Assembly: GCA_028687975.1 (NCBI GenBank)
Contig: JAQTZD010000005.1
Coordinates: forward strand, 2,905-66,904
Direction: 5' to 3'
Origin: Sediminibacterium sp.
Lineage (GTDB): Bacteria; Bacteroidota; Bacteroidia; Chitinophagales; Chitinophagaceae
DNA: 64,000 nucleotides
Shown here: one piece after another, positions 51,516-64,000 of the stretch
Numbering within the stretch: the first letter of the stretch is position 1
Layout: each line of letters opens with the position of its first letter
The notes under the pieces: model-generated
The model's database searches: none
What the model saw: only the letters and a program-made list of their open reading frames with translations
What the model was told of the DNA's origin: nothing
Translations under genes and position numbers: made by a program

Positions 51516-53426
51516 ATGAAAGTACAGATGGTAGATTCATTCGAAAAAATTGATGTCAGGATTTGTAAAAATGCCAAGGAAGGGGCTTTATGGGTGGCCG
51601 GCCAAATTGCCGACCTGATCAGAGAGAAACAGGCTAAAGGAGAAAAATGTGTGCTGGGTCTTGCTACCGGTTCCACTCCCATTGCCATGTATGCCGAACT
51701 GGTGAGAATGCATAAAGCCGGGAAACTCAGTTTTAAGAATGTAATCAGCTTTAACCTCGATGAATATTATCCGATAGACAAGGATGCTTATCAGAGTTAC
51801 TGGAGTTTCATGCACCGCCATCTGTTCAACCATGTAGATATTGATCCTGCCAATATTCACCTCCCTAACGGTAATGCGCCCAAAGAAGAGATGCGGAATT
51901 TTTGCACCGCATATGAACAGGCCATTACCGATGCCGGCGGGTTGGATTTACAAATCCTTGGCATCGGCCAGAACGGTCACATCGGTTTTAATGAACCCGG
52001 TTCCAGCATTCTGTCCAAAACAAGGTTGGTGAACCTCGATAACAGCACCCGGATTGCCAATTCCTATGAATTTCCAAGCATTTCCAAAGTGCCCAGACTG
52101 GCCGTAACCATGGGCATCAGCACCATCCTGCAGTCTAAGAGAATTCTGCTGATGGCCTGGGGAAACAAAGCAGGCATCGTAGCCAAATCGGTGGAAGGCA
52201 ATGTTACAGAAAGCATTCCTGCCAGCATTTTACAGCAGCACGGCAACTGCACATTTGTCATTGATGAATCAGCTTCTACAGAACTGACCCGCATCAAATC
52301 TCCCTGGTTAACCGGAGAATGTACCTGGAGCAATGCCATGGTAAAACGTGCAGTAGTTAATCTGGCCCTTAAACTGAATAAATCTGTCCTCAGCCTTACA
52401 GAACTGGACTACACCGAAAATGGATTATCCGACCTGTTGGTAGAAAAAGGGGATGCATACGAAATCAACCTGCAGGTATTCTATATGCTGCGCGACAGCA
52501 TTACCGGCTGGCCTGCGGGCAAGCCCAATGCAGTCATTCCTGCACACCCTGAACGCAGTGCCCCTTATCCTAAAAAGTGTTTGATTTTTTCTCCGCATCC
52601 GGACGACGATATCATCAGCATGGGTGGAACTTTCATGCGACTCCACGACCAGGGAAATGAAGTACATGTGGCCTATCAGACCAGCGGTAATATTGCCGTG
52701 TCTGATGAGTTTGTAACCCGTTTTATCGATTTTGCGGTAGGATTTGAAGAAATGTTTGGCATAGACAACAGCAAGAGCCGCGAACAACTGGAGTCTGCCC
52801 GCGCATTTATTGCCACCAAACAGAAAGACCAGTCCGATACAAAAGAAATACGCGCAATCAAAGGACTGATCCGAAGAGGTGAAGCAAAAGCCACCTGCAG
52901 ATATGTAGGTCTGACCGAAGACCGTTGTCATTTTATGAACCTGCCCTTCTATGAAACCGGTGCAGTAGAAAAGAAACCGCTGGGAGAAGATGATATTCAA
53001 ATCACCATGGAACTGCTTCGCAAAATTCAACCACATCAGGTGTATTGCGCAGGAGATTTGGCTGATCCGCATGGCACGCATAAAGTTTGCCTCGAAGCTG
53101 TATTTGAAGCTTTGAGAAGGCTCAAAGCAGCCGGAGATCCGTGGGTAAAAGATTGTTGGGTTTGGTTGTACAAGGGTGCATGGCAGGAATGGGATATTGC
53201 GGAAATTGAAATGGCGATCCCAATGAGCCCCGATCAGGTGAAAAAGAAACGATTCGGTATTTTCATTCACCAATCGCAGAAAGATGCTGTTCCGTTCCAG
53301 GGAGCAGACAGCCGCGAGTTCTGGCAGCGCGCAGAGGAAAGAAATGCAAACACGGCCGATCTGTATGCAGCACTTGGTTTAACCAAATATGCTGCCATGG
53401 AAGCATTTGTTCGCTGGCACTACTAA
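51516..53426 (+). CDS. nagB: Glucosamine-6-phosphate deaminase with C-terminal PIG-L/LmbE-like domain
   Basis: LGLATGSTP, FNLDEYY, GIGQNGHIGFNEP; C-domain FSPHPDDDIISMGG and DPHGTH. Confidence 0.93.
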   Translation: MKVQMVDSFEKIDVRICKNAKEGALWVAGQIADLIREKQAKGEKCVLGLATGSTPIAMYAELVRMHKAGKLSFKNVISFNLDEYYPIDKDAYQSYWSFMHRHLFNHVDIDPANIHLPNGNAPKEEMRNFCTAYEQAITDAGGLDLQILGIGQNGHIGFNEPGSSILSKTRLVNLDNSTRIANSYEFPSISKVPRLAVTMGISTILQSKRILLMAWGNKAGIVAKSVEGNVTESIPASILQQHGNCTFVIDESASTELTRIKSPWLTGECTWSNAMVKRAVVNLALKLNKSVLSLTELDYTENGLSDLLVEKGDAYEINLQVFYMLRDSITGWPAGKPNAVIPAHPERSAPYPKKCLIFSPHPDDDIISMGGTFMRLHDQGNEVHVAYQTSGNIAVSDEFVTRFIDFAVGFEEMFGIDNSKSREQLESARAFIATKQKDQSDTKEIRAIKGLIRRGEAKATCRYVGLTEDRCHFMNLPFYETGAVEKKPLGEDDIQITMELLRKIQPHQVYCAGDLADPHGTHKVCLEAVFEALRRLKAAGDPWVKDCWVWLYKGAWQEWDIAEIEMAIPMSPDQVKKKRFGIFIHQSQKDAVPFQGADSREFWQRAEERNANTADLYAALGLTKYAAMEAFVRWHY

Positions 53427-53770: not shown

Positions 53771-54781
53771 CTATAACCCATAGTATAAAGTAATATTACC
53801 CACCTGTTGCGCATAAGTACCTTTGAACTCTGCCGTGCGCAATTTTTCTGAGAAACTGAATGCAAATCGTTTATGCGACACCATGAAACCATATTCGTAT
53901 TGCATCACAAATCGGCTGATACTGTCTTTGCTGATTACATAGGGTGAAGAACGGTGACTAAAGAACCCTCCCTGTAAAGTAGCATCATCCATCACAGCCG
54001 TTCCATTCAGCTTCATAAACAGATAAAACTGAAAAGGCTTTCTGTTGCCATTACCTGCCTTACGGGGATTGTAAGCAGGACGCTCATATTGACTGAAATA
54101 AGGGTTGAATATTCCGGCACGAAACTGCATACCTAATCCGATATTGTTCACCAGTGTACCGGCATTGGCGGCAATATTTCCAATCACTTCCAGATTAGGC
54201 GTAGGATTGAACAGCAGGTGCTCATACAAAATACCGTAATTGATAATGATGTCTGTTTTAATCTGGTTCTCCCAGCCCATTGGCTTCTGGTAATTGATTA
54301 ACCCGTGAATAATGCGTTGTGCATCTCCGGCAAATGAATACTTGCCAATAATACCCAGGCTGAGCCCCGTAGTCAGTTTCTGCTTTTTTTCCATGCTGGT
54401 AGAAACCTGTGTATGTGTTGCATAAGTGATGCCGCAATAAGGCCGCTCTCCATACTGAATGGTGGTTTTATCTATTTCATTGGGCGTATACATATTCTGG
54501 GAAATACCCCAGCCATAGAGATTATCTGCTGTACCGGTCACTTTCATCAACAGATTAGACGGAAAGCGGGGAGCCTTGCCTTTGGAAAAATACATTTCGA
54601 ATTTAAATCCGCTGGTATACGCCCGGTCGGTCCCTTCTCCCCTGAAGTTGAGAAAATCATCATCCTCCGAAAGTTTCATGTATTGCAGTACGTTGTTTTT
54701 CTGTGCTGAACCGGTAGTATAAAACAACAGAGAACCAATTGCTACAAGCACAAACTTCCAGGATGTCAAAAACAGTTTCAT
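53771..54781 (-). CDS. LpxR family lipid A 3'-O-deacylase-like outer-membrane beta-barrel
   Basis: Signal peptide; EDDD...DRAYTSG, Q--YTP, ERPYCG, Q---H----Y-KP-GW-NQ motifs. Confidence 0.8.
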   Translation of the reverse strand: MKLFLTSWKFVLVAIGSLLFYTTGSAQKNNVLQYMKLSEDDDFLNFRGEGTDRAYTSGFKFEMYFSKGKAPRFPSNLLMKVTGTADNLYGWGISQNMYTPNEIDKTTIQYGERPYCGITYATHTQVSTSMEKKQKLTTGLSLGIIGKYSFAGDAQRIIHGLINYQKPMGWENQIKTDIIINYGILYEHLLFNPTPNLEVIGNIAANAGTLVNNIGLGMQFRAGIFNPYFSQYERPAYNPRKAGNGNRKPFQFYLFMKLNGTAVMDDATLQGGFFSHRSSPYVISKDSISRFVMQYEYGFMVSHKRFAFSFSEKLRTAEFKGTYAQQVGNITLYYGL

Positions 54782-54853: not shown

Positions 54854-55486
54854 ATGGGAATGACGATTGGAGCAACCTGGAGCGGGTATTGGAGCAACAA
54901 GTCCTTCAGGGTGAAATTTATTACAGGAATTGTACTGCTGGCAATGCTGACCCCCTTGTTTCCCGTATTCTTTGAATACATCGAAAAACGGGAAGGGTAT
55001 CAGTTAAACGACTACCTGCTGAGCAGGCTGGAGCCAATGAATGTATCTGTACTCACTTTCCTGATCATCTGGGGGATGATTGCCTTCACACTCTACCGTT
55101 GCATGAAAGATCCGGATATGTTACTCTTGCTCATCTGGTCGTATGTGTTGCTTTGTTTTGGCCGCATTCTGAGTATTTATCTGGTTCCGCTGAACCCGCC
55201 AAAAGGCCTGATTGAACTGAAAGACCCGCTCAGTGGCATCTTTTACGGCAGCCAGATGGTCACCAAAGACCTGTTTTTTTCGGGTCATACTGCTACCTTG
55301 TTCACCATGTTTCTTTGCTTAAAAAACAAAACCGACAAGATCATTTTGCTGCTGTCTTCTTTTGTAATCGGTATCCTGGTACTGGTTCAACATGTTCATT
55401 ATACCCTCGATGTAGCTGCAGCCTTTCTTTTCTCCTATCTGTTTTACAGGATGGCCAAGCGATTATTGCAGTTCGATTTTAGCTAA
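54854..55486 (+). CDS. Sphingomyelin-synthase-like PAP2 (PAP2_C) membrane phosphotransferase
   Basis: Multi-TM; KDLFFSGHT and HVHYTLDV match the SMS D3 (D--FSGHT) and D4 (HYT-DV) motifs. Confidence 0.78.
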   Translation: MGMTIGATWSGYWSNKSFRVKFITGIVLLAMLTPLFPVFFEYIEKREGYQLNDYLLSRLEPMNVSVLTFLIIWGMIAFTLYRCMKDPDMLLLLIWSYVLLCFGRILSIYLVPLNPPKGLIELKDPLSGIFYGSQMVTKDLFFSGHTATLFTMFLCLKNKTDKIILLLSSFVIGILVLVQHVHYTLDVAAAFLFSYLFYRMAKRLLQFDFS

Positions 55487-56426
55487 CGGCAGCAACAATC
55501 CGGTCCATAAAATTTTGTATGAGTCTGCTTTTGTTCAAGAGCCGGTTGAACAAAAATATACCTGTGATGGCACATACGATACCCGCAATTACATCCAGTA
55601 CATAATGGTGACTGGTATATACTGCTGCAAACCAGATACCAACCATAACGGCGGTGAAAAACAGGTTCATCCAGCCGGAGCGGCTTTTGATTCCATAGTA
55701 CAATACAATCAGCGGATAGGATGAATGGAGCGATGGCATGGCTGCAAATACATTGGAGCTTTTTTCGTACAGTCCGCGGAAAATATTTACTCCAAAAAAG
55801 GTGTCAAATCTTACCAGCCCTGCTGTATTTCCTTTTGTACCGGGGATAAAATCAAATCCATATTGTTGTATGTACCAGGGTGGCGCTGCGGGATAAATAT
55901 AGTAGAGGCAGAACCCCAGGAGGTTGACCAGCAGGAACGTAAGCGAAAAACGAAAAAACATTCTGCGGTCTTTAAAAAAAAGGAAGGCGCCAAACATCAG
56001 CGGCACAGGTATCCAGCTCAGGTAAAAAAAACCGCTGAGTACATCCAGGAATGTATTGTGGTGCCTGAGCCAGTATTCATTGGGGGTAATCAGGGTACCA
56101 TTTTCAGTGAGTCCGAAAAAGGCTTTCTCCTTGAGGTAAAGACTGCGGATGTGTACATCATTGTACAAATAGTTCGGAAAGGCCTTCATGTAATCGAAAA
56201 TGATCCAGAATACAATGAAAACAGAAAAGCCCAGGATAAACTTTCGGGTAACTGCCGACAAAAAGTAACAACCCGAAAACAAAGCCACCAGCAACAATTG
56301 TTCCTGCTTGTAACCAATCAGAAAATAAGACAATGCCAGGTAGGCGATACTGAGGAATGCCACCAGCAGAATATCTTTCCGGCTAAGGGTTTCATTTTGG
56401 TTCAACGAATCAGGCAGCATATTCAT
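55479..56426 (-). CDS. Inositol phosphorylceramide synthase-like (AUR1/PAP2_3; BT_1522-like)
   Basis: YPAAPPWY, AAMPSLHS, HHYVLDVIAG catalytic motifs; located in the MIPS operon. Confidence 0.88.
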   Translation of the reverse strand: MNMLPDSLNQNETLSRKDILLVAFLSIAYLALSYFLIGYKQEQLLLVALFSGCYFLSAVTRKFILGFSVFIVFWIIFDYMKAFPNYLYNDVHIRSLYLKEKAFFGLTENGTLITPNEYWLRHHNTFLDVLSGFFYLSWIPVPLMFGAFLFFKDRRMFFRFSLTFLLVNLLGFCLYYIYPAAPPWYIQQYGFDFIPGTKGNTAGLVRFDTFFGVNIFRGLYEKSSNVFAAMPSLHSSYPLIVLYYGIKSRSGWMNLFFTAVMVGIWFAAVYTSHHYVLDVIAGIVCAITGIFLFNRLLNKSRLIQNFMDRIVAAVS

Positions 56427-56440
56427 CTGTGATTTTCGGG

Positions 56441-57082
56441 TCAGGGCTTGAATCTTTCGATAATGGGTTTGCCGGTTGCTACATCCGTACCACGCAATTC
56501 AATGTAAACTACATTGGGTTTAAACAAGGTACCTCCCGGATCTATTCTGATGAATACTCTGTTCAACGCAGCATTCCGGCGGTTAATCAGTGTGTACATC
56601 CGATAGCTGTTATCCGTTGGTGATTTGCGTAGGTAAAGGTCTTTTTTCTTGTAGGCTACCAGGTGAATGGTGTAGCTGTTGTCCTTGTTTTTTTCCGACA
56701 TGGTTCCATAGGCAAAAGCCTTTTGAATAAAGTTCAGCTCTTTGTGCATACCACCTTCGGGATAACGAATCCAGAATACTTTTACGGGAGTAGACTCATC
56801 CAGTTTTCCCGCAGCATTTACATTCAGCGTATAAATCACTGTATTGGTATTGGTGGTACGCTGTAAATAAAATAACTGGTTTCTGATATTGGCAGGAACC
56901 GGAAAAGTATCCTGCGGCTCCAGGATTTCCTTATCAGTTGATAAGCCGGAAAACTTACCCCTTCCTGCGTAAGTTGAATTCACCAAAAGAAGGGTTGTAA
57001 CAAAGGCTGTCATGATCCTCACAATACGGGCTGTTTTACCCGCTCTGCACACAAATAATTGATTCATTTTAAATAAAAACAT
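56441..57082 (-). CDS. DUF4833 domain exported protein
   Basis: LFYLQRTTNTNTVIY, VFWIRY, ELNFIQKAFAYG, V-YIEL-G-D; alternative starts at 57067 and further downstream. Confidence 0.8.
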   Translation of the reverse strand: MFLFKMNQLFVCRAGKTARIVRIMTAFVTTLLLVNSTYAGRGKFSGLSTDKEILEPQDTFPVPANIRNQLFYLQRTTNTNTVIYTLNVNAAGKLDESTPVKVFWIRYPEGGMHKELNFIQKAFAYGTMSEKNKDNSYTIHLVAYKKKDLYLRKSPTDNSYRMYTLINRRNAALNRVFIRIDPGGTLFKPNVVYIELRGTDVATGKPIIERFKP

Positions 57083-57813
57083 TAAAGGCTTTTCTGCCGG
57101 TCTTTCAAATCCAGTGCTGCTTTGGCATCCAGTAATCTTCGGAATGCCGTATAATTGGTCAGTAAAGCAAGCAGCATGATCGGAATAGTGAATATGGATA
57201 TGGTTTCAAAAATTTGTATTTGGGTTCCGGGCAGGAATACTTTATAATCTCCGCCAATAAAGTAAGCGGCAATACCACAGGCAATGGCTGAAATACCTAT
57301 CGTGATTACCCGCTCCGGTCTTTGCATCAGTCCTTCTTTACATTCCACACCCAGGCCCTCTGCCCTTGCCCGGGTATAACTTACCATCATGGAACCAATC
57401 AGGGCAATGAAGGCAAACAGGGAGCTGTAGAAATAATGATGGGCAATCAGGTAATAGCAAATGCCCAAAAACAGGATCAGTTCACTGTAGCGATCCAGCA
57501 CGGAATCGAACAATGCCCCGAAGGAAGAACTCATTTTTCCCAACCGGGCCACCTGACCATCCAGCATATCAAAAACACCGGCAAAAAGTACCATGGCACC
57601 GGCCCATCCAATATAGCTGAGTTCTCCCCGATGCCCTTTTTCGGCCCCTTCTATGAATATAGCAGTTACTGCTATATTGAGCAGTAGCCCGATCACTGTA
57701 ACTGCATTGGGTGTTAGCCCGATCTTAATCAGGAATTTCACAGCAGGATTGATCACAGCGTAAATGGCCTGCTGCGCTCTGTCTCTGAATTTTATTTGCC
57801 TTTGCTCTGTCAT
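57082..57813 (-). CDS. CDP-alcohol phosphatidyltransferase (phosphatidylinositol-phosphate synthase, BT_1523-like)
   Basis: DMLDGQVARLGKMSSSFGALFDSVLDRYSE matches DG-x2-AR-x8-G-x3-D-x3-D; SYTRARAEGLG, RPER. Confidence 0.92.
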   Translation of the reverse strand: MTEQRQIKFRDRAQQAIYAVINPAVKFLIKIGLTPNAVTVIGLLLNIAVTAIFIEGAEKGHRGELSYIGWAGAMVLFAGVFDMLDGQVARLGKMSSSFGALFDSVLDRYSELILFLGICYYLIAHHYFYSSLFAFIALIGSMMVSYTRARAEGLGVECKEGLMQRPERVITIGISAIACGIAAYFIGGDYKVFLPGTQIQIFETISIFTIPIMLLALLTNYTAFRRLLDAKAALDLKDRQKSL

Positions 57814-57824
57814 ACATTCCTTCG

Positions 57825-60404
57825 TTAAAAATCAAACCTGAATCTTGTTCTGATACCATAAGGAGAAATTTCCGGATGATCGAGGTAACTGAATCTTTTA
57901 ACAAAATCGACCCGGATAAGTTTCAGGATATTCTCAATACCAACGCTTCCTTCCATATATGGCTTACCAGATTCCAGTGCAAAGGTAGATGTGGCGCCGT
58001 TAATTTTAGGATACTGGAACAATGAAGGGTTGTTGACCGGATTATTTTCCGGCCTTACGCCACCGTAGAGGATTTTGAAGGAAGCCACTTCACGCAGTTT
58101 CAGTTTCTTGAACAGCGGAATCCGGTTGAACCCGATTCCCATAAAGTGGTGAACCCAGGTAAATGAGGCATAGCGGTCACTGACAAATTCCAGGAAGTTC
58201 ATCAGGTTATAAGAATTCATCTGGTATGCGAAAGTCTGGTTGGCACGGTGAATGGTCATCAAAGGAAAAGGCACTTGGCCAAAGGTATAACCCGCTTCCA
58301 TGGCCGCATCTGCATAACCCAGGCGGGACAGGTAAAAGCGCTTATCCACTTTTAAATCCAATTGATGGTAATTGTACTGTCCTCCCAGCAAGCCTTTAAT
58401 CCCCGCTGAATAATTCAGGGTCATGATGGGATATTTATTGAAAATCGGTATCCGGTATACCTTTCCCTGGTAGTATTGTTCTTTAGGCGCCCACCGGATC
58501 TGTGCATTGATTTCTGTAGTGGTCAACTGAGGAACATTCTCCGGAAATCCATTATCGGTTTTGGTATACGACAAGCCCCCTGCAGGCTGCTGCCGCCAGT
58601 TCTTCAGCCCCAGTGTATAGGAAAACTTGCTCTTGAACTCCTTTACAAATTCCACTTTATAAATATCGTTGTAGAGCCAGCGATCGTTGTTTCCGCGTTT
58701 AAAAGACAAAAGGAAATTGTCTTCCTGAACAAACTCCAGGTCCTGTCCGGGAATTTTGGTGTCGGACTGAGCACTAATCCGGATAAAGTTCATCGGGAAA
58801 GTATAGATCGACTTATTGTTGAGTGAATATGTGGAACTGATAAAGTATTTCCATTTCTCGTCTTTGAATCCGTATGCGCCATAGGTTTCAAAATATAGCC
58901 GCTTACTCAGGGCCGGGGTGGTTCTTCCTCCCACACGCAAACGGAATCCTTCCACCGGGTTGAAGCTGTAAAATGTATTTACCGGTCCCACTTCAAATTT
59001 GCCCAGGTTACCATATCCGGCAAACAACAAGGTAGCTACCGCCATGGTTCTTCTGAAAGAAGGCATTTTTTCCAGGCTGTCGATATTGGTATATACTCTG
59101 GACTCTGTTAAACTCAACTGATCGTGTCGTTTTGCAGTCCAGAAAGTATCCGGCAGTTTATCAACAAAGTCTTTTCTAACAACAGGTGAGCCTGCGTATG
59201 TACTATCCGGTCTCGGACTGTTGATGGTGAAATTTTTATAGGAAACCGTTCGTTCTCCAAAAAAGCCTCCGCTGTTTTTATTCTTGCTCAATCCCATGTC
59301 GGCCATGAGTGTGCTCTTTTGCAGGTGGTAGCGCTTATCTTCTCCTCGTTCAAAATCCAGGTCTATATGCATTTCCTTCACCCAGTTGATATTGGCATTC
59401 TTACTCAGGAACATGTTGATTTTCTGTACCCCGTAATTGCCATCGAGGGTGATGTACATATTGCCCCTGAATAACAGATCATTGGTATTGCGGGGGGTAA
59501 AATACATTTTCACCAGCTTGGTGCCATATTCGTCGGTAATGGTATCTCGGATATAGAACATGTAGAAAGCAGGTGCAGAATTGGCAATCGGACTCAGGAA
59601 CTGAAAAGTGAAAACATGAATATCGTTCTGATAGATGTCGATGTTTTCGTACAACCTGTTCAAAAGGGTACTTAAACCGTCGTTGTCTACATAACTTCCG
59701 AAGTTCACTTTCTTCTCGCCAAGAATAATAGACTTGCTTGCCTCCGGCGACTTGCGCAGGAACTGCTGAGACAATCTTTCCTCGAGATATATGGGTAAAA
59801 GGCTCTTCCCTTCCATTTTGGTGGTATCCCTGTTATCGAAAATGAAACTGTACTTTTTCATCAACTTTGAATTAGCCAGTTTCTCCGTTGAATTACTCAG
59901 TGCAGCCTGAATTTTTTCATACTGCTCATATTCCACATAATCGTAACTGGTAGTCCGGTTTTCGTCCCGATGCTCAATTACTTTACGAATCAGTTCCACT
60001 GCCGGGTTATTCCGGTTGCTGTATTTTGCCCGTTTGTTGGTACTTACTGTTACATTGCTCATCAAAGCTGGATCAGGTCCCATCATGATGGTCAGGTCTT
60101 CCACACTTCCCTTCTTAATGGTAAACTGCAGCTGCCTGTATCCCACAGAAGAAACAATGAGTTTATTGCTGTTGCCGGAGTAAATAATCATAAAATTACC
60201 CAGGCTGTCGGTGGAACGTCCTCTCCCCCCTTTGAAATATACACTGGCTTGTGCAATCGGCCTGCCTGTAAGAGAGTCGATGACCCTTCCCTTCACCACC
60301 GTTCCCTGTCCAAAACTGTCTGTAACAGCTGTAAACAGCAACACCAGCCCCAGCAAGCACTGTTTCCACCCTATACTATTTATGAATTTATTTTTTAAAA
60401 ACAT
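57825..60404 (-). CDS. Outer-membrane protein: CarboxypepD_reg-like N-domain plus DUF5686 beta-barrel
   Basis: Signal peptide, VKGRVIDS-TG-PI--ASV...VSSVGY N-domain, NPAVELIRKVI, C-terminal aromatic beta-signal RFRFDF; start moved to 60404. Confidence 0.85.
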   Translation of the reverse strand: MFLKNKFINSIGWKQCLLGLVLLFTAVTDSFGQGTVVKGRVIDSLTGRPIAQASVYFKGGRGRSTDSLGNFMIIYSGNSNKLIVSSVGYRQLQFTIKKGSVEDLTIMMGPDPALMSNVTVSTNKRAKYSNRNNPAVELIRKVIEHRDENRTTSYDYVEYEQYEKIQAALSNSTEKLANSKLMKKYSFIFDNRDTTKMEGKSLLPIYLEERLSQQFLRKSPEASKSIILGEKKVNFGSYVDNDGLSTLLNRLYENIDIYQNDIHVFTFQFLSPIANSAPAFYMFYIRDTITDEYGTKLVKMYFTPRNTNDLLFRGNMYITLDGNYGVQKINMFLSKNANINWVKEMHIDLDFERGEDKRYHLQKSTLMADMGLSKNKNSGGFFGERTVSYKNFTINSPRPDSTYAGSPVVRKDFVDKLPDTFWTAKRHDQLSLTESRVYTNIDSLEKMPSFRRTMAVATLLFAGYGNLGKFEVGPVNTFYSFNPVEGFRLRVGGRTTPALSKRLYFETYGAYGFKDEKWKYFISSTYSLNNKSIYTFPMNFIRISAQSDTKIPGQDLEFVQEDNFLLSFKRGNNDRWLYNDIYKVEFVKEFKSKFSYTLGLKNWRQQPAGGLSYTKTDNGFPENVPQLTTTEINAQIRWAPKEQYYQGKVYRIPIFNKYPIMTLNYSAGIKGLLGGQYNYHQLDLKVDKRFYLSRLGYADAAMEAGYTFGQVPFPLMTIHRANQTFAYQMNSYNLMNFLEFVSDRYASFTWVHHFMGIGFNRIPLFKKLKLREVASFKILYGGVRPENNPVNNPSLFQYPKINGATSTFALESGKPYMEGSVGIENILKLIRVDFVKRFSYLDHPEISPYGIRTRFRFDF

Positions 60405-60771
60405 ACTTTCCTTGTAAAACATAATTATAAAATATACCAACCAATAAGGATACCAATATCTTGGAAAACACATAGTTCACGTTAAAAACATGCACCATCA
60501 ATGCCAGCCCGCCCACATTTAACAGCAAGTTCCCCACCCATACCAACAGGTATTTAAGTGCCTGCTGTGGTACCGGATGTTCTTTTGACTGGAACACCCA
60601 GTTTCTTCCCAGTGTAAAGTTCAGTACCCCGCCCGTGGTAGTTCCGATTGCACCGGCAATCACAGGAGGCAGGTGCACCAGTTCCACCATCAATACTGTT
60701 ACCAGAAAATCGGTAGCAGATGATATCAAAGAAGATGCCTGAGCCTTTATAAATACCCACCATTTTACCAT
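60388..60771 (-). CDS. GtrA family membrane protein (putative lipid flippase; BT_1524-like)
   Basis: 127 aa, four TM, D--V...NF-L-R-WVF...K-------YNY-LQ--YVF. Confidence 0.88.
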   Translation of the reverse strand: MVKWWVFIKAQASSLISSATDFLVTVLMVELVHLPPVIAGAIGTTTGGVLNFTLGRNWVFQSKEHPVPQQALKYLLVWVGNLLLNVGGLALMVHVFNVNYVFSKILVSLLVGIFYNYVLQGKYVFKK

Positions 60772-61220
60772 AACTGCAGATATAGCATTATTTGTAAAAC
60801 AATATTGGCATAAATACCAGCCAGTACGTCATCCCCCATCACCCCCCAGCCTTTTGGCAGTTGTTCCATTTTTCTGACCATCAGCGGCTTCGCGATGTCG
60901 AAAAAACGAAAAAGTGCCAGGGCAACCAGCAGGTTCGTCAGATTTAGCGGAACAAACAAAAGGCTGATAAACATGCCCGCCACTTCATCAATCACCACTT
61001 TACTGCTGTCTTTGCCCCACAATGGTTCCACTTCGGCTGCGCCCCAAACCCCATAGGCCGTAACCAATAAGGTTACTCCGGCAGTAACTGCCAACTGCGC
61101 CTGATCAAATGCATAATACCAAATGATACAGGCTACCGCTGCAGCAACAGTGCCACCGCCTTTGGATATATAACCTATACCCAAAAAACTGGTTAATGTC
61201 TGGTGCAGCCTGATCATCAT
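60765..61220 (-). CDS. pgpA: Phosphatidylglycerophosphatase A family (PIP phosphatase, BT_1525-like)
   Basis: GTVAA, VVIDEVAG, FRFFDIAKP, GVMGDDVLAGIYA. Confidence 0.92.
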   Translation of the reverse strand: MMIRLHQTLTSFLGIGYISKGGGTVAAAVACIIWYYAFDQAQLAVTAGVTLLVTAYGVWGAAEVEPLWGKDSSKVVIDEVAGMFISLLFVPLNLTNLLVALALFRFFDIAKPLMVRKMEQLPKGWGVMGDDVLAGIYANIVLQIMLYLQLW

Positions 61221-62542
61221 AGGGCTTCTACAAGTTCCTGATAGTAATCAAGCCCCAGATGCGTAATCAGGTCTTCTCCCATCATATGACGCAATGTGTT
61301 CTGCAGTTTAATTAACTGTTTAAAAATATCGTGTTCAGGATTCAGACCAGGAGCCGTTTGCGGCGATTTAAAATAGAACGACAACCATTCCTGAATGCCG
61401 CTCATTTCTGCACGCTTTGCCAGATCCATGAACAAAGCCAGGTCCAGTACAATCGGAGCAGCTAAAATTGAATCCCGGCAGAGAAAATTAATTTTAATCT
61501 GCATCGAATAGCCCAACCATCCAAATATGTCGATATTATCCCAACTCTCTTTATTGTCTCCATGTGGAGGATAATAGTTGATTCTTACTTTATGGTATAA
61601 GTCTCCGTAAAGGGCCGGATTTTTTTCCGGCTGAAGAATATCTTCCAGTACGCTGAGCTTGGATACTTCCTTGGTTTTAAAGTTATCCGGATCATCCAGT
61701 ACCAGACCATCGCGATTCCCAAGAATATTGGTAGAGAACCAGCCGCGGACACCCAGGGCCCTTGCTGCCAAACCCGGTGCTACAATGGTTTTCATGAGGG
61801 TCTGACCAGTTTTAAAATCCTTTCCGGCTACAGGAGTACCGGTTTCTTTTGCAAGTTCAATCAATGCCGGAATATCAACCGTAAGATTGGGGGCGCCATT
61901 GGCAAACGGAACACCCAGTTTCAATGCCGCATAAGCATAAATCATGCTAGGAGCAATGGCCGGATCGCTGTTGTGCAGTCCTGCTTCAAATGCTTCCATA
62001 CTTTGATGCACTGCAGAAGCTTCTATGTACTTTTCCGTAGATCCGCACCATACAATCACCACCCGGCTACAGCCGTTTTCTTTTTGAAAAGTTTCAATAT
62101 CGTTCATTACCTGAAGGGCAAGGTCGTATTTGGATTTACCTTCTTTAATATGGGTACCATCCAGGTTTTTAACATAGGAACGATCAAATACCGCTTTCAT
62201 AGGCTGGATGGATTCCAGTTCGGGCTTCACCGCATGCAGCAGCATTGGCTCGATCACTTTGGCTTTGGAAGCAGCTTCGAACACGTTGTCGCTGTACACA
62301 TCCCAACCACCAAAAACAATGTCTTTCAGTTCCGCCAGCGGAACAAAATCCTTGATCAGAGGATACCTGTTTTCTGTTCTTTTACCCAGGCGGATATTAC
62401 CCATTTGTGTTAATGAGCCAACGGGCTGGGACAAGCCTTTGTTCACAGCAATTACTCCTGCAATCATGGTAGTACCAACAGCTCCCAGTCCGGGTATCAG
62501 TATACCCAGTTTACCTTCTGCCGGTTGTATATAATGGTTCAT
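61217..62542 (-). CDS. ino1: myo-inositol-1-phosphate synthase (BT_1526-like)
   Basis: GLGAVGTT NAD loop, GKDFKTGQTLMK, WFSTNILGNRDG, CRDSILAAPIVLDL. Confidence 0.96.
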   Translation of the reverse strand: MNHYIQPAEGKLGILIPGLGAVGTTMIAGVIAVNKGLSQPVGSLTQMGNIRLGKRTENRYPLIKDFVPLAELKDIVFGGWDVYSDNVFEAASKAKVIEPMLLHAVKPELESIQPMKAVFDRSYVKNLDGTHIKEGKSKYDLALQVMNDIETFQKENGCSRVVIVWCGSTEKYIEASAVHQSMEAFEAGLHNSDPAIAPSMIYAYAALKLGVPFANGAPNLTVDIPALIELAKETGTPVAGKDFKTGQTLMKTIVAPGLAARALGVRGWFSTNILGNRDGLVLDDPDNFKTKEVSKLSVLEDILQPEKNPALYGDLYHKVRINYYPPHGDNKESWDNIDIFGWLGYSMQIKINFLCRDSILAAPIVLDLALFMDLAKRAEMSGIQEWLSFYFKSPQTAPGLNPEHDIFKQLIKLQNTLRHMMGEDLITHLGLDYYQELVEAL

Positions 62543-62548
62543 ACGCTT

Positions 62549-63151
62549 TTATTTAGTGGTTGTTTGATGATGATTTTTAAGCCCTTCGGTCATGATGCCG
62601 GAAATAACATTGATCCTGTTTTCCAGGCCAGATAATTTATTGCTGAAATAGTCCCGTTCAATTCCCCGGATACTGCTCACAATTAAAGAAGGTAAAATGT
62701 CCATTTCATCGGATAGTTGCGCCTTGAACTCACCGGATTGAATTCCGGATTCCAGAATAGAAGCAATCAGTTGGATATCCTGCTGTGTGTACTCAGAAAA
62801 AAGTTCTTTAGAACAGGTAGGCTGCCACATCATTTCACCGCAAACCAGCTTGTACAGGTTTATCATTTTAGTCAAGACCGTGATTTTGGTAACCGCAAAA
62901 GCCCTGAGTTTCTCCTCGGCCGTTCGGGCTTTTTCCACAGCAGACTTGGTTACATTAAATACTTCCTGCAGCTCAGATTGCAACACATCCTCAAAAATCT
63001 GTTCTTTGGACTGGTAATAATAATAAAGGGTGCTTTTGCCCTTTCCCATCGCTTTGGCGATGTCTTCCATGGTAGTTTTCTTCAGACCAAAGGTTTGAAA
63101 GAGCTTTTGTGCCGCCCGTATCACATCTTCTCTGAATATAACTTCTTTCAT
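62549..63151 (-). CDS. TetR/AcrR family transcriptional regulator
   Basis: AAQKLFQTFGLKKTTMEDIAKAMGKGKSTLYYYYQSKEQIF helix-turn-helix. Confidence 0.95.
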   Translation of the reverse strand: MKEVIFREDVIRAAQKLFQTFGLKKTTMEDIAKAMGKGKSTLYYYYQSKEQIFEDVLQSELQEVFNVTKSAVEKARTAEEKLRAFAVTKITVLTKMINLYKLVCGEMMWQPTCSKELFSEYTQQDIQLIASILESGIQSGEFKAQLSDEMDILPSLIVSSIRGIERDYFSNKLSGLENRINVISGIMTEGLKNHHQTTTK

Positions 63152-63158
63152 TTGAAAC

Positions 63159-63192
63159 TTTTAGACCAAAATCGTTTTAAAGTCCAAAACTA
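63159..63192 (-). promoter_or_regulatory. Promoter -7 element (TAGTTTTG, 63185-63192) overlapping an imperfect inverted repeat TTTTAGAC-N15-GTCCAAAA (candidate TetR operator)
   Basis: Read directly; lies 8-41 nt upstream of the TetR ATG. Confidence 0.55.
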
Positions 63193-63345
63193 GGTGATTA
63201 TGCGTTAATAAGGAATTAATTTTATATAAGTGGCTACTGAGAGGGACAAATGTTACAAAAGGGCTAATTACTGGGGTTCTACCAGTTCCGAGCTACTTTC
63301 TTCCTTCATGTAGAATACAAATTGACAGAATGCAGGTATAACAAA

Positions 63346-63385
63346 TCAAAAAAGCCTGCAAATCAATGAATTGCAGGCTTTTGAT
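63346..63385 (-). terminator. Terminator hairpin 3' of tRNA-Arg
   Basis: AAAAGCCTGCAA atcaatgaa TTGCAGGCTTTT with an A6 run (U-tract on the minus strand). Confidence 0.75.
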
Positions 63386-63405
63386 ACCATTGGAAGGTAT
63401 TGTTG

Positions 63406-63479
63406 TGACCGCGTTAGGATTCAAACCTAAAACCTTCTGATCCGTAGTCAGATGCTCTATTCAGTTGAGCTACGCAGCC
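63406..63479 (-). tRNA. tRNA-Arg (ACG)
   Basis: Reverse complement GGCTGCGTAGCTCAACTGAATAGAGCATCTGACTACGGATCAGAAGGTTTTAGGTTTGAATCCTAACGCGGTCA; anticodon arm TCTGA-CT ACG GA-TCAGA; upstream TATATTTG promoter element. Confidence 0.96.
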
Positions 63480-63677: not shown

Positions 63678-64000
63678 TTATAATTTTTCAATCCTACCAC
63701 CGATCCGGTCTAATATTTTTTCAAACTCCGGTTGTCCCCTATAATACAAATTTCGAGAAGACTCATAACGCTTTTGCAGCCGCTCACGCGTTGCAGAATC
63801 GGACAACAGAAATGCTTCATTTTTTGCAATTGGCAACTCAAAGTCTGCAGTTGAAAAGCGTTTCTGCTTATGAATCATATATTCTTCAGTTCCAATGAAT
63901 GTCTGTATATCCGACGAAGCGAGCAGCGAGTATACGTCATAGTACTGGCGCATATAATTGGTTGCAACCTCCCCTGTTGTCATTTCTTTCCGGAATTTTG
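63678..64000 (-). CDS. Nucleotidyltransferase AbiEii/AbiGii toxin family protein, C-terminal part (runs off right edge)
   Basis: The frame stays open to the window edge (..KFRKEMTTGEVATNYMRQYYDVYSLL...FIGTEEY--HKQKRF); R(H/Q)YYD-Y-L is the AbiEii C-terminal motif. Confidence 0.7.
   Translation of the reverse strand, partial: KFRKEMTTGEVATNYMRQYYDVYSLLASSDIQTFIGTEEYMIHKQKRFSTADFELPIAKNEAFLLSDSATRERLQKRYESSRNLYYRGQPEFEKILDRIGGRIEKL

Follow-up and report, generated by a model that had tools for sequence, protein, structure and literature searches.

How does a bacterium that builds inositol lipids control their synthesis, and how does it handle them once they are made? Both questions are raised by an eight-gene run on the minus strand of a 64-kb stretch of Sediminibacterium sp. 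DNA (the window, within which neighboring genes and intergenic promoter boxes were judged). In order, the run encodes a TetR-family regulator, myo-inositol-3-phosphate synthase (MIPS), a PgpA-family phosphatase, a GtrA-family membrane protein, a DUF5686 protein, a CDP-alcohol phosphatidyltransferase that is a phosphatidylinositol phosphate (PIP) synthase (PIPS), a DUF4833 protein, and an AUR1-like enzyme (Table 1). With high confidence, we interpret the locus as an operon for inositol membrane lipids that is controlled by TetR and uses the Bacteroides thetaiotaomicron pathway. Its enzyme core is already known, as the operon and its enzymes belong to the described BT_1522-BT_1526 pathway. What is new is the TetR control with a candidate operator and a conserved, often fused module of DUF4833 and DUF5686, which is real and essentially undescribed.

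Enzymes of the inositol lipid pathway

A preliminary description of this DNA had matched its enzymes to the B. thetaiotaomicron pathway, and this match holds on the Pfam and NCBIfam assignments and on solved relatives. MIPS has both Pfam domains of its family, and its best solved relative is the inositol-3-phosphate synthase structure 7nwr (E 1.4e-164, residues 2-424), which we take to be the B. thetaiotaomicron enzyme; the domains and this match place it in the BT-type pathway. PIPS exceeds the 350-bit cut-off of the NCBIfam equivalog PIPSynBT1523 (Table 1) and matches the mycobacterial PIPS structures with an E value of 2e-20. Its translation contains the motif D-x2-DG-x2-AR...G-x3-D-x3-D in the form DMLDGQVAR...GALFDSVLD. 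The phosphatase belongs to the PgpA family, and its putative role as PIP phosphatase is borrowed by analogy from work on B. thetaiotaomicron, in which the roles of BT_1522, BT_1523, BT_1525, and BT_1526 were shown (Heaver et al. 2022, PMC9246714). Deletion of BT_1524, the GtrA gene, gave no lipid phenotype in the same study, which leaves the GtrA flippase step of the preliminary description without support.

In the pathway that these assignments predict, MIPS would supply inositol-3-phosphate, PIP synthase would join it to CDP-diacylglycerol at the cytoplasmic face of the inner membrane, and the PgpA-type phosphatase would release phosphatidylinositol. Finally, the AUR1-like PAP2 enzyme would move phosphoinositol onto another lipid, with dihydroceramide the most likely acceptor, and to judge from other PAP2 and AUR1 enzymes it would do so at the periplasmic face.

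The identity of this acceptor is where the sphingolipid assignment has to be weighed. If the AUR1-like enzyme used another acceptor, the operon would make only glycerol-based phosphatidylinositol or a non-ceramide inositol-phosphate lipid, and the label of inositol sphingolipid would be wrong. Two results count against our assignment and in favor of this alternative: the AUR1-like protein scores 340 bits against the NCBIfam equivalog for phosphoinositol dihydroceramide synthase (NF052609, PhinosDhcerSyn), under its cut-off of 480, and the 64-kb window has no gene for serine palmitoyltransferase, nor a bCerS-like or clear CerR-like gene. A literature search also found no report of sphingolipids in Chitinophagaceae. 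However, the protein aligns with yeast AUR1 structures over 245 residues (E 6e-16) and keeps the PAP2 catalytic motifs as PSLH and HHYVLD. The converging gene next to it resembles sphingomyelin synthase, another ceramide-using family, and related Bacteroidota clusters hold serine palmitoyltransferase, bCerS-like, and CerR-like genes in one unit. We therefore regard a non-ceramide product as unlikely and retain dihydroceramide as the probable acceptor.

DUF4833 and DUF5686 accompany lipid head-group genes

The link of the DUF4833/DUF5686 pair to these lipid clusters is strong. A DUF4833 profile scan of one genome per species gave 490 encoding stretches, from which we took the best 80 with 10-kb flanks. 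A CDP-alcohol transferase and DUF5686 were both found near DUF4833 in 75 of these 80 loci, and only two (L068 and L071) contained a truly lone DUF4833. The co-occurrence with inositol-lipid genes that the preliminary description expected of the two proteins was thus observed in gene neighborhoods, as well as in the fusions described below.

Three unrelated designs of head-group cluster contain the pair: the BT-like design, the 'alternative' design with a nucleoside triphosphate (NTP) transferase and a HAD hydrolase, and an Olivibacter type. Sediminibacterium roseum and two metagenome-assembled genomes have (TetR-)DUF5686-DUF4833 in a tail-to-tail arrangement with a set of alternative-type genes, namely HAD, LPG_synthase_TM, CDP-alcohol transferase, an unassigned gene, and NTP transferase. 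The clusters of Dyadobacter and Runella run from a bCerS-like GNAT gene (not at every locus) through a CerR-like epimerase, DUF5686, NTP transferase, an unassigned gene, CDP-alcohol transferase, LPG_synthase_TM, HAD, PfkB, and DUF4833 to a fatty-acid hydroxylase, which is followed by a methyltransferase in Dyadobacter only. The Olivibacter order is serine palmitoyltransferase, GNAT, DUF5686, fatty-acid hydroxylase, CDP-alcohol transferase, GtrA, and DUF4833, and the first of these passes the NCBIfam equivalog NF047600 (732 bits versus 640). Since the pair is kept in clusters without MIPS and in clusters with serine palmitoyltransferase, its constant partner is the CDP-alcohol transferase or sphingolipid pathway and not inositol synthesis; the earlier view of an inositol-specific pair is not sustained. 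GtrA and the flippase-like LPG_synthase_TM appear to be complementary, in that clusters lacking GtrA carry LPG_synthase_TM and those with GtrA are mostly without it.

Some loci depart from these designs. BT-like clusters complete except for MIPS, with PgpA directly after TetR, were found at L039, L046, and L052. Two degenerate clusters (L082, 5469-9843, and L083, 1448-5822) consist of TetR, a 430-nt gap, DUF5686, and a C-terminal PIPS remnant fused to DUF4833; they have lost MIPS, PgpA, GtrA, and the AUR1-like gene. Four loci of the Sediminibacterium type (L044, L035, L054, and L023) lie in bins labeled Brevundimonas vancanneytii, Chitinophaga pinensis, and Sphingobacterium thalpophilum, labels that are probably wrong. 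In the closest relatives of the window, a second, stand-alone DUF4833 paralogue (∼36% identical; L001, 1352-1876) is located ∼2 kb 5' of tetR, a position that would fall just past base 64000 of the window.

Gene fusions provided a second line of evidence. Of the 69 loci with both PIPS and DUF4833, 43 encode the two in one open reading frame (ORF), including the isolates S. goheungense DSM 28323, S. magnilacihabitans DSM 22423, and S. ginsengisoli DSM 22335, and we accepted the fusion only on the basis of these single ORFs in 43 genome loci. Pfam detects both domains in fusion products of 431 and 438 residues. At the join, a basic linker and one extra hydrophobic helix precede DUF4833, and the separate DUF4833 gene of the window, which is split from PIPS at TAATG (junction cttTAATGttt), retains the basic stretch and the helix. 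Solved structures have established that PIPS has six helices and that both of its ends are cytoplasmic. An additional helix after PIPS therefore places DUF4833 in the periplasm. A second enzyme, a fatty-acid hydroxylase, is fused to DUF4833 in a single 498-residue ORF (FA_hydroxylase::DUF4833; metagenome locus L086, 572-2068, protein P0295). This was observed once, and the two are encoded by neighboring genes at L138. Fusions with two distinct membrane enzymes of these clusters strongly indicate that DUF4833 shares a function with them. Since DUF4833 is in most cases attached to an inner-membrane enzyme, by fusion or by a tether, a free periplasmic shuttle is disfavored. Two further long proteins called for caution: P0070 comes from a 2.5x-coverage contig with frameshifts, and P0077 is a PIPS remnant joined to DUF4833 in a degenerate cluster.

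For the wider family, a full HMMER search gave 1627 DUF4833 clusters at 50% identity, and we inspected 88 distant loci (80 metagenome loci and a few context look-ups), applying a score threshold for partners. About 30 of the 88 share partners with the subfamily of the window. Two metagenome loci (L126 and L135) hold serine palmitoyltransferase, bCerS-like GNAT, MIPS, DUF5686, PIPS, DUF4833, fatty-acid hydroxylase, and an AUR1-like gene in one run, with a CerR-like epimerase after GNAT in L126. Within the subfamily of the window, the association with lipid clusters is almost universal; over the DUF4833 family as a whole it is partial.

This partial association bears on whether the pair could be a general envelope-biogenesis or stress module that hitch-hikes in operons and has no specific link to lipids. 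Many distant DUF4833 genes stand alone amid housekeeping genes, and L082 and L083 retain TetR, DUF5686, and DUF4833 after loss of the inositol genes. Weighing likewise against a lipid role, ∼58 of the 88 distant loci have none of the neighbors listed above, 22 of them belonging to one syntenic lineage with DUF4833 between rimP-nusA-infB and a TonB-dependent receptor, and a distant subfamily has YceI and thioredoxin genes as neighbors. Fusions to lipid enzymes have nevertheless arisen repeatedly and independently, and the pair has kept its place in three cluster designs across four orders, so we consider hitch-hiking highly improbable. We judge it very likely that DUF4833 and DUF5686 form one module that is functionally part of this kind of lipid pathway.

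The distant subfamily with YceI and thioredoxin (L170, 4217-6604; L171, 2455-4715) lies in a conserved run that encodes a tRNA_anti-like OB-fold protein, YceI, thioredoxin, and DUF4833 and is devoid of lipid head-group genes. A single example favors the pairing even at a distance: at L089 (88-4990), a DUF4833 gene whose product is ∼30% identical to that of the window is divergent from DUF5686-ABC_tran-ABC2_membrane, a set that may be an export system. The apparent DUF5686 near DUF4833 in L138 and L161 was rejected, as the match was confined to the CarboxypepD_reg domain of a BlaR1/TonB-like protein.

Predicted properties of the two proteins

The DUF4833 protein lies well over its Pfam gathering threshold (160.5 bits versus 23.1 for PF16117). 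It has a basic N-terminus, one hydrophobic helix, a linker, and a beta-rich domain of 150 residues that is predicted to be periplasmic. In an AlphaFold2 model with a predicted local distance difference test (pLDDT) score of 82, these correspond to a helix at residues 9-31, a disordered linker, and a compact beta-rich domain at 55-208. With the fusion topology, the model agrees with the periplasmic location given in the preliminary description. The best Foldseek matches were weak beta-propeller pieces (E 8e-3, TM 0.25), and a sequence search against the PDB was empty. Polar or aromatic side chains predominate among the invariant residues: Gln69, Arg70, Asn73, Asn75, Tyr79, Trp99, Arg101, Glu104, Lys141, Arg170, Glu190, and Arg205. 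Our full-text literature search found no paper that names DUF4833.

The DUF5686 protein scores 175.5 bits against PF18939 (threshold 39.2). It consists of a signal peptide ending ...G/Q, a CarboxypepD_reg domain, a central beta-rich region, and a modeled C-terminal barrel with the terminal residues RFRFDF, ending in Phe. A profile search against PDB sequences matched the N-terminal domain of SusC/RagA only. In a Foldseek search with a low-confidence model of the protein, the top 50 matches were all Omp85 barrels (E 2e-7 to 3e-5), to which the C-terminal ∼400 residues aligned, and the TM-score reached 0.60 against the TamA barrel. A family member from Tannerella forsythia is listed in an outer-membrane-vesicle proteome. 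Taken together with the signal peptide, the terminal Phe, and the barrel model, this makes DUF5686 a probable outer-membrane protein, in line with its initial placement.

The preliminary description also regarded DUF5686 as extra relative to B. thetaiotaomicron, which is probably incorrect. Heaver et al. 2022 (PMC9246714) noted a carboxypeptidase-regulatory-like protein, the BT_1527 homologue, beside both BT-like and 'alternative' clusters, and an LPG-synthase-TM protein, the BT_1521 homologue, near both cluster types. The BT_1527 homologue is probably a DUF5686 protein, so the adjacency of DUF5686 to such clusters is probably not new. A profile search for distant DUF5686 homologues gave only close relatives among the matches listed and no named Bacteroides context. 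In the literature search, DUF5686 came up in two papers, in passing in both.

Possible functions of the pair

We consider it possible, if somewhat short of probable, that the two proteins handle the anionic lipid from the periplasmic side once its synthesis is complete. DUF4833 would be a periplasmic domain held at the inner membrane, by its own helix here and by fusion to PIP synthase in most relatives, where it would bind the lipid head group beside the synthesizing enzymes. DUF5686, a putative barrel of the outer membrane whose large N-terminal part would lie in the periplasm, would take the lipid and insert it into the outer membrane. In a more specific form, which we put forward tentatively and rate as rather doubtful, the pair would be a dedicated Bacteroidota system that delivers anionic phospho-head-group lipids (inositol phospholipids and phosphosphingolipids) from their synthases to the outer membrane, with DUF4833 as the dock and DUF5686 as an Omp85-like insertion barrel. 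Such a route would be unrelated to Lpt, Mla, Lol, or AsmA-like bridges and would be the Bacteroidota answer to how bacterial sphingolipids reach the cell surface.

Lipid movement to the outer membrane, as already proposed in the preliminary description, is the most economical reading of the pair, yet we only infer it, and an enzymatic role is a serious rival. Several results speak against transport. The Omp85 likeness of DUF5686 comes from a model with a pLDDT of 61 and a predicted TM-score (pTM) of 0.41; a Pfam search of the barrel and middle region up to E 10 gave no Omp85 match or second family, and no POTRA domains were found. For DUF4833, Foldseek against the PDB gave no match at E ≤ 0.001 and none to LptA/LptC, MlaC, or LolA. 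Its invariant polar residues (Arg, Asn, Tyr, and Glu) are more in keeping with catalysis or the binding of a head group than with a groove for acyl chains. Lastly, DUF5686 is 50-52% identical between orders with hundreds of invariant residues, a degree of conservation that is unusual for a passive channel and hints at an enzyme.

The same features would suit a modifying role, in which one or both proteins would act on the lipid or on its head group, in either the periplasm or the outer membrane, for example as a transferase, hydrolase, or acyl-remodeling enzyme. Barrel enzymes exist, as illustrated by PagP, PagL, and LpxR. The strong conservation of DUF5686 includes many invariant His, Asp, Glu, Arg, and Asn residues, DUF4833 combines invariant Glu104, Glu190, Arg, Tyr, and Asn residues with the lack of a lipid-carrier fold, two different membrane enzymes are fused to DUF4833, and a gene for the barrel enzyme LpxR lies ∼0.7 kb past the last gene of the operon. 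However, neither protein matches any catalytic family, the five enzymes alone account for the known lipid products of B. thetaiotaomicron, and known barrel enzymes are much smaller than the 850-residue barrel. An enzymatic role is thus improbable in our estimate.

Import was also considered, with DUF5686 as an outer-membrane entry channel and DUF4833 as a periplasmic binder of inositol, inositol phosphate, or a host lipid. The three loci that retain the pair without MIPS (L039, L046, and L052) are consistent with this, the PfkB sugar kinase in the MIPS-less clusters of Dyadobacter and Runella would fit imported inositol, and DUF5686 has the N-terminal domain of SusC/RagA importers. The pair is nonetheless kept in clusters that make their own inositol phosphate, no conserved inner-membrane importer lies alongside, DUF5686 has no plug domain or TonB box, and an uptake system would not be expected to have its binding protein fused to PIP synthase or a fatty-acid hydroxylase. 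We therefore view import of a precursor as very unlikely and return to handling of the finished lipid as the preferred reading. Taken together, the enzyme core, its regulation, the pair module, and lipid handling form the best overall explanation of the locus, one that we give an even chance of being correct as a whole.

Probable regulation by TetR

The regulator has the TetR helix-turn-helix domain, and its best NCBIfam matches are weak ones to RefZ and FadR-type regulators. Only one intergenic Bacteroidota-type -7 box (TAnnTTTG) is present on this strand, TAGTTTTG at 63185-63192, just 5' of tetR. It overlaps an imperfect palindrome, GGAC-TTTAAAA-CGA-TTTTGGTC, which ends ∼8 nt ahead of the tetR ATG and is a candidate TetR operator. 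The 34 bases preceding the tetR start codon are conserved in ∼60 loci, and the sequence farther upstream diverges. Their consensus is TAnTTTTGGACCgAAAAACGATTTTGGTCgAAAA, comprising the -7 box and then the palindrome GACCnAAAA-ACGA-TTTTGGTC. This conservation holds even where identity is just ∼45-50% for DUF4833, with which the loci were retrieved, and ∼50-58% for TetR, and two alternative-type clusters (L064 and L065) have the same element ahead of tetR. The regulator heads BT-like clusters, some alternative-type clusters, and the degenerate ones that contain only TetR, DUF5686, and DUF4833.

By sequence, a conserved palindrome at the -7 box directly 5' of tetR has the form of an operator. TetR probably binds this palindrome over the promoter and represses the whole unit, including its own gene, until a ligand, possibly a lipid, would release it.

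Operon layout and flanking genes

The eight minus-strand genes described previously were confirmed at 55479-63151, with all eight family assignments passing the Pfam cut-off (Table 1). The coordinates reproduce the reported spacings of +6, -4, -7, -17, +11, -1, and +14 nt, and TetR at the head of the unit was likewise borne out. The DUF5686 ORF, counted from the ATG at 60404, can be extended to 60473. The same eight genes in exactly this order were found in ∼60 related loci, which puts the arrangement far beyond chance. Terminator-like hairpins inside the unit are not enriched, with 12 observed and 9.7 expected in shuffled sequence. The spacings, the lone -7 box, and the kept gene order support a single tightly packed unit, which is predicted to be cotranscribed. 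Upstream, the tRNA-Arg gene, hairpin, and T-run end the preceding unit.

Table 1. Features of the inositol lipid locus and its borders in the window
Feature	Coordinates	Strand	Evidence
TetR-family regulator (200 aa), first gene of the unit	62549-63151	-	TetR_N PF00440 1.6e-13
Myo-inositol-3-phosphate synthase (MIPS)	61217-62542	-	NAD_binding_5 2.9e-104; Inos-1-P_synth 5.5e-33
PgpA-family phosphatase, counterpart of the PIP phosphatase BT_1525	60765-61220	-	PgpA PF04608 2.5e-37
GtrA-family small membrane protein, BT_1524 counterpart	60388-60771	-	GtrA_DPMS_TM 1.5e-19
DUF5686 protein (859 aa)	57825-60404	-	PF18939 2.2e-51; PF13715 3.8e-12
CDP-alcohol phosphatidyltransferase, PIP synthase (PIPS)	57082-57813	-	NF052561 PIPSynBT1523 380.7 bits
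DUF4833 protein	56441-57082	-	PF16117 3.4e-47
AUR1-like PAP2_3 enzyme, probable phosphoinositol-(dihydro)ceramide synthase, BT_1522 counterpart	55479-56426	-	PAP2_3 5.9e-26
Promoter -7 box and candidate TetR operator	63159-63192	-	Motif and conservation before tetR
Sphingomyelin-synthase-like PAP2_C gene, convergent	54854-55486	+	PAP2_C 1.3e-09
Upstream boundary: tRNA-Arg(ACG) at 63405-63479, then hairpin and T-run	63345-63479	-	ARAGORN; sequence

The convergent PAP2_C gene, which bounds the unit downstream, overlaps the AUR1-like gene by 8 nt at its 3' end and is a conserved neighbor outside the predicted operon transcript. Its product has SGH and HYTLD motifs, is syntenic in the closest relatives, and could be a second ceramide head-group transferase. 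The LpxR-family gene (53771-54781, minus strand; PF09982, 1.7e-60) encodes a homologue of the outer-membrane lipid A deacylase. Farther on, a plus-strand gene (51516-53426) encodes a 636-residue fusion of a glucosamine-6-phosphate isomerase-like domain and PIG-L, the GlcNAc-PI de-N-acetylase family. Roughly two dozen of the closest relatives share its synteny with the cluster. The protein may serve ordinary amino-sugar catabolism; a PIG-L domain adjoining phosphatidylinositol synthesis is noteworthy. For every protein, the nearest relatives are from Sediminibacterium and other Chitinophagaceae.

Significance and comparison with known systems

In Bacteroidota, inositol lipids and sphingolipids shape outer-membrane vesicles, antimicrobial peptide resistance, and host signaling. 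The transport of sphingolipids to the outer membrane has been termed 'a mystery' (Uchendu, Isom and Klein 2026, bioRxiv 10.64898/2026.04.12.717747), and the only earlier lead on this route is that preprint, on Lpt paralogues in Caulobacter. The present locus and its relatives single out two widespread proteins as the best current candidates for lipid handling after synthesis. As gene order across four orders and repeated fusions tie both proteins to these pathways, their role is testable in existing genetic systems, and the dedicated repressor with its clear candidate operator offers a handle on pathway regulation.

Among known barrels, the C-terminus of DUF5686, in its low-confidence model, aligns to the 16-stranded barrels of the Omp85 superfamily (BamA, TamA, Sam50, and Toc75), and the protein ends in Phe. 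It differs in having neither POTRA domains nor an Omp85 Pfam match, and in its CarboxypepD_reg N-terminus and a 300-residue region whose fold was not assigned. The Caulobacter crescentus sphingolipid locus, which contains LptF2/LptG2/LptC2 (bioRxiv 10.64898/2026.04.12.717747), offers a precedent for lipid-transport genes placed among those for sphingolipid synthesis; one of its products spans the inner membrane once and has a beta domain in the periplasm. In contrast, DUF4833 has no Lpt-like sequence or fold match, no LptF/G-like genes are present here, and the outer-membrane partner is different.

The 'alternative' cluster of Bacteroides vulgatus and Prevotella (Heaver et al. 2022) comprises an NTP transferase, a CDP-alcohol phosphatidyltransferase, and a HAD hydrolase. 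The DUF4833/DUF5686 pair accompanies this design in Sediminibacterium roseum, Dyadobacter, and Runella, whereas the window has BT-like enzymes; the 'alternative' pathway is biochemically putative.

The closest known system is BT_1522-BT_1526 of B. thetaiotaomicron (PMC9246714; Sartorio et al. 2022, PMC8791184). The two clusters share five functions in identical relative order, namely MIPS, a PgpA-type PIP phosphatase, a GtrA protein, PIP synthase, and an AUR1-like synthase, and a carboxypeptidase-regulatory-like outer-membrane protein also adjoins the B. thetaiotaomicron cluster. They differ in that the window has no LPG_synthase_TM (BT_1521-like) gene, its unit begins with tetR and a conserved candidate operator, GtrA and PIPS are separated by a DUF5686 gene within the operon, and a DUF4833 gene, unmentioned in PMC9246714, is placed between PIPS and the last enzyme. 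The hosts differ as well. The present one is a free-living freshwater or soil lineage of Chitinophagaceae, unlike the gut Bacteroidales, and the BT-type pathway, described from gut bacteria, is thus common in free-living freshwater Chitinophagaceae.

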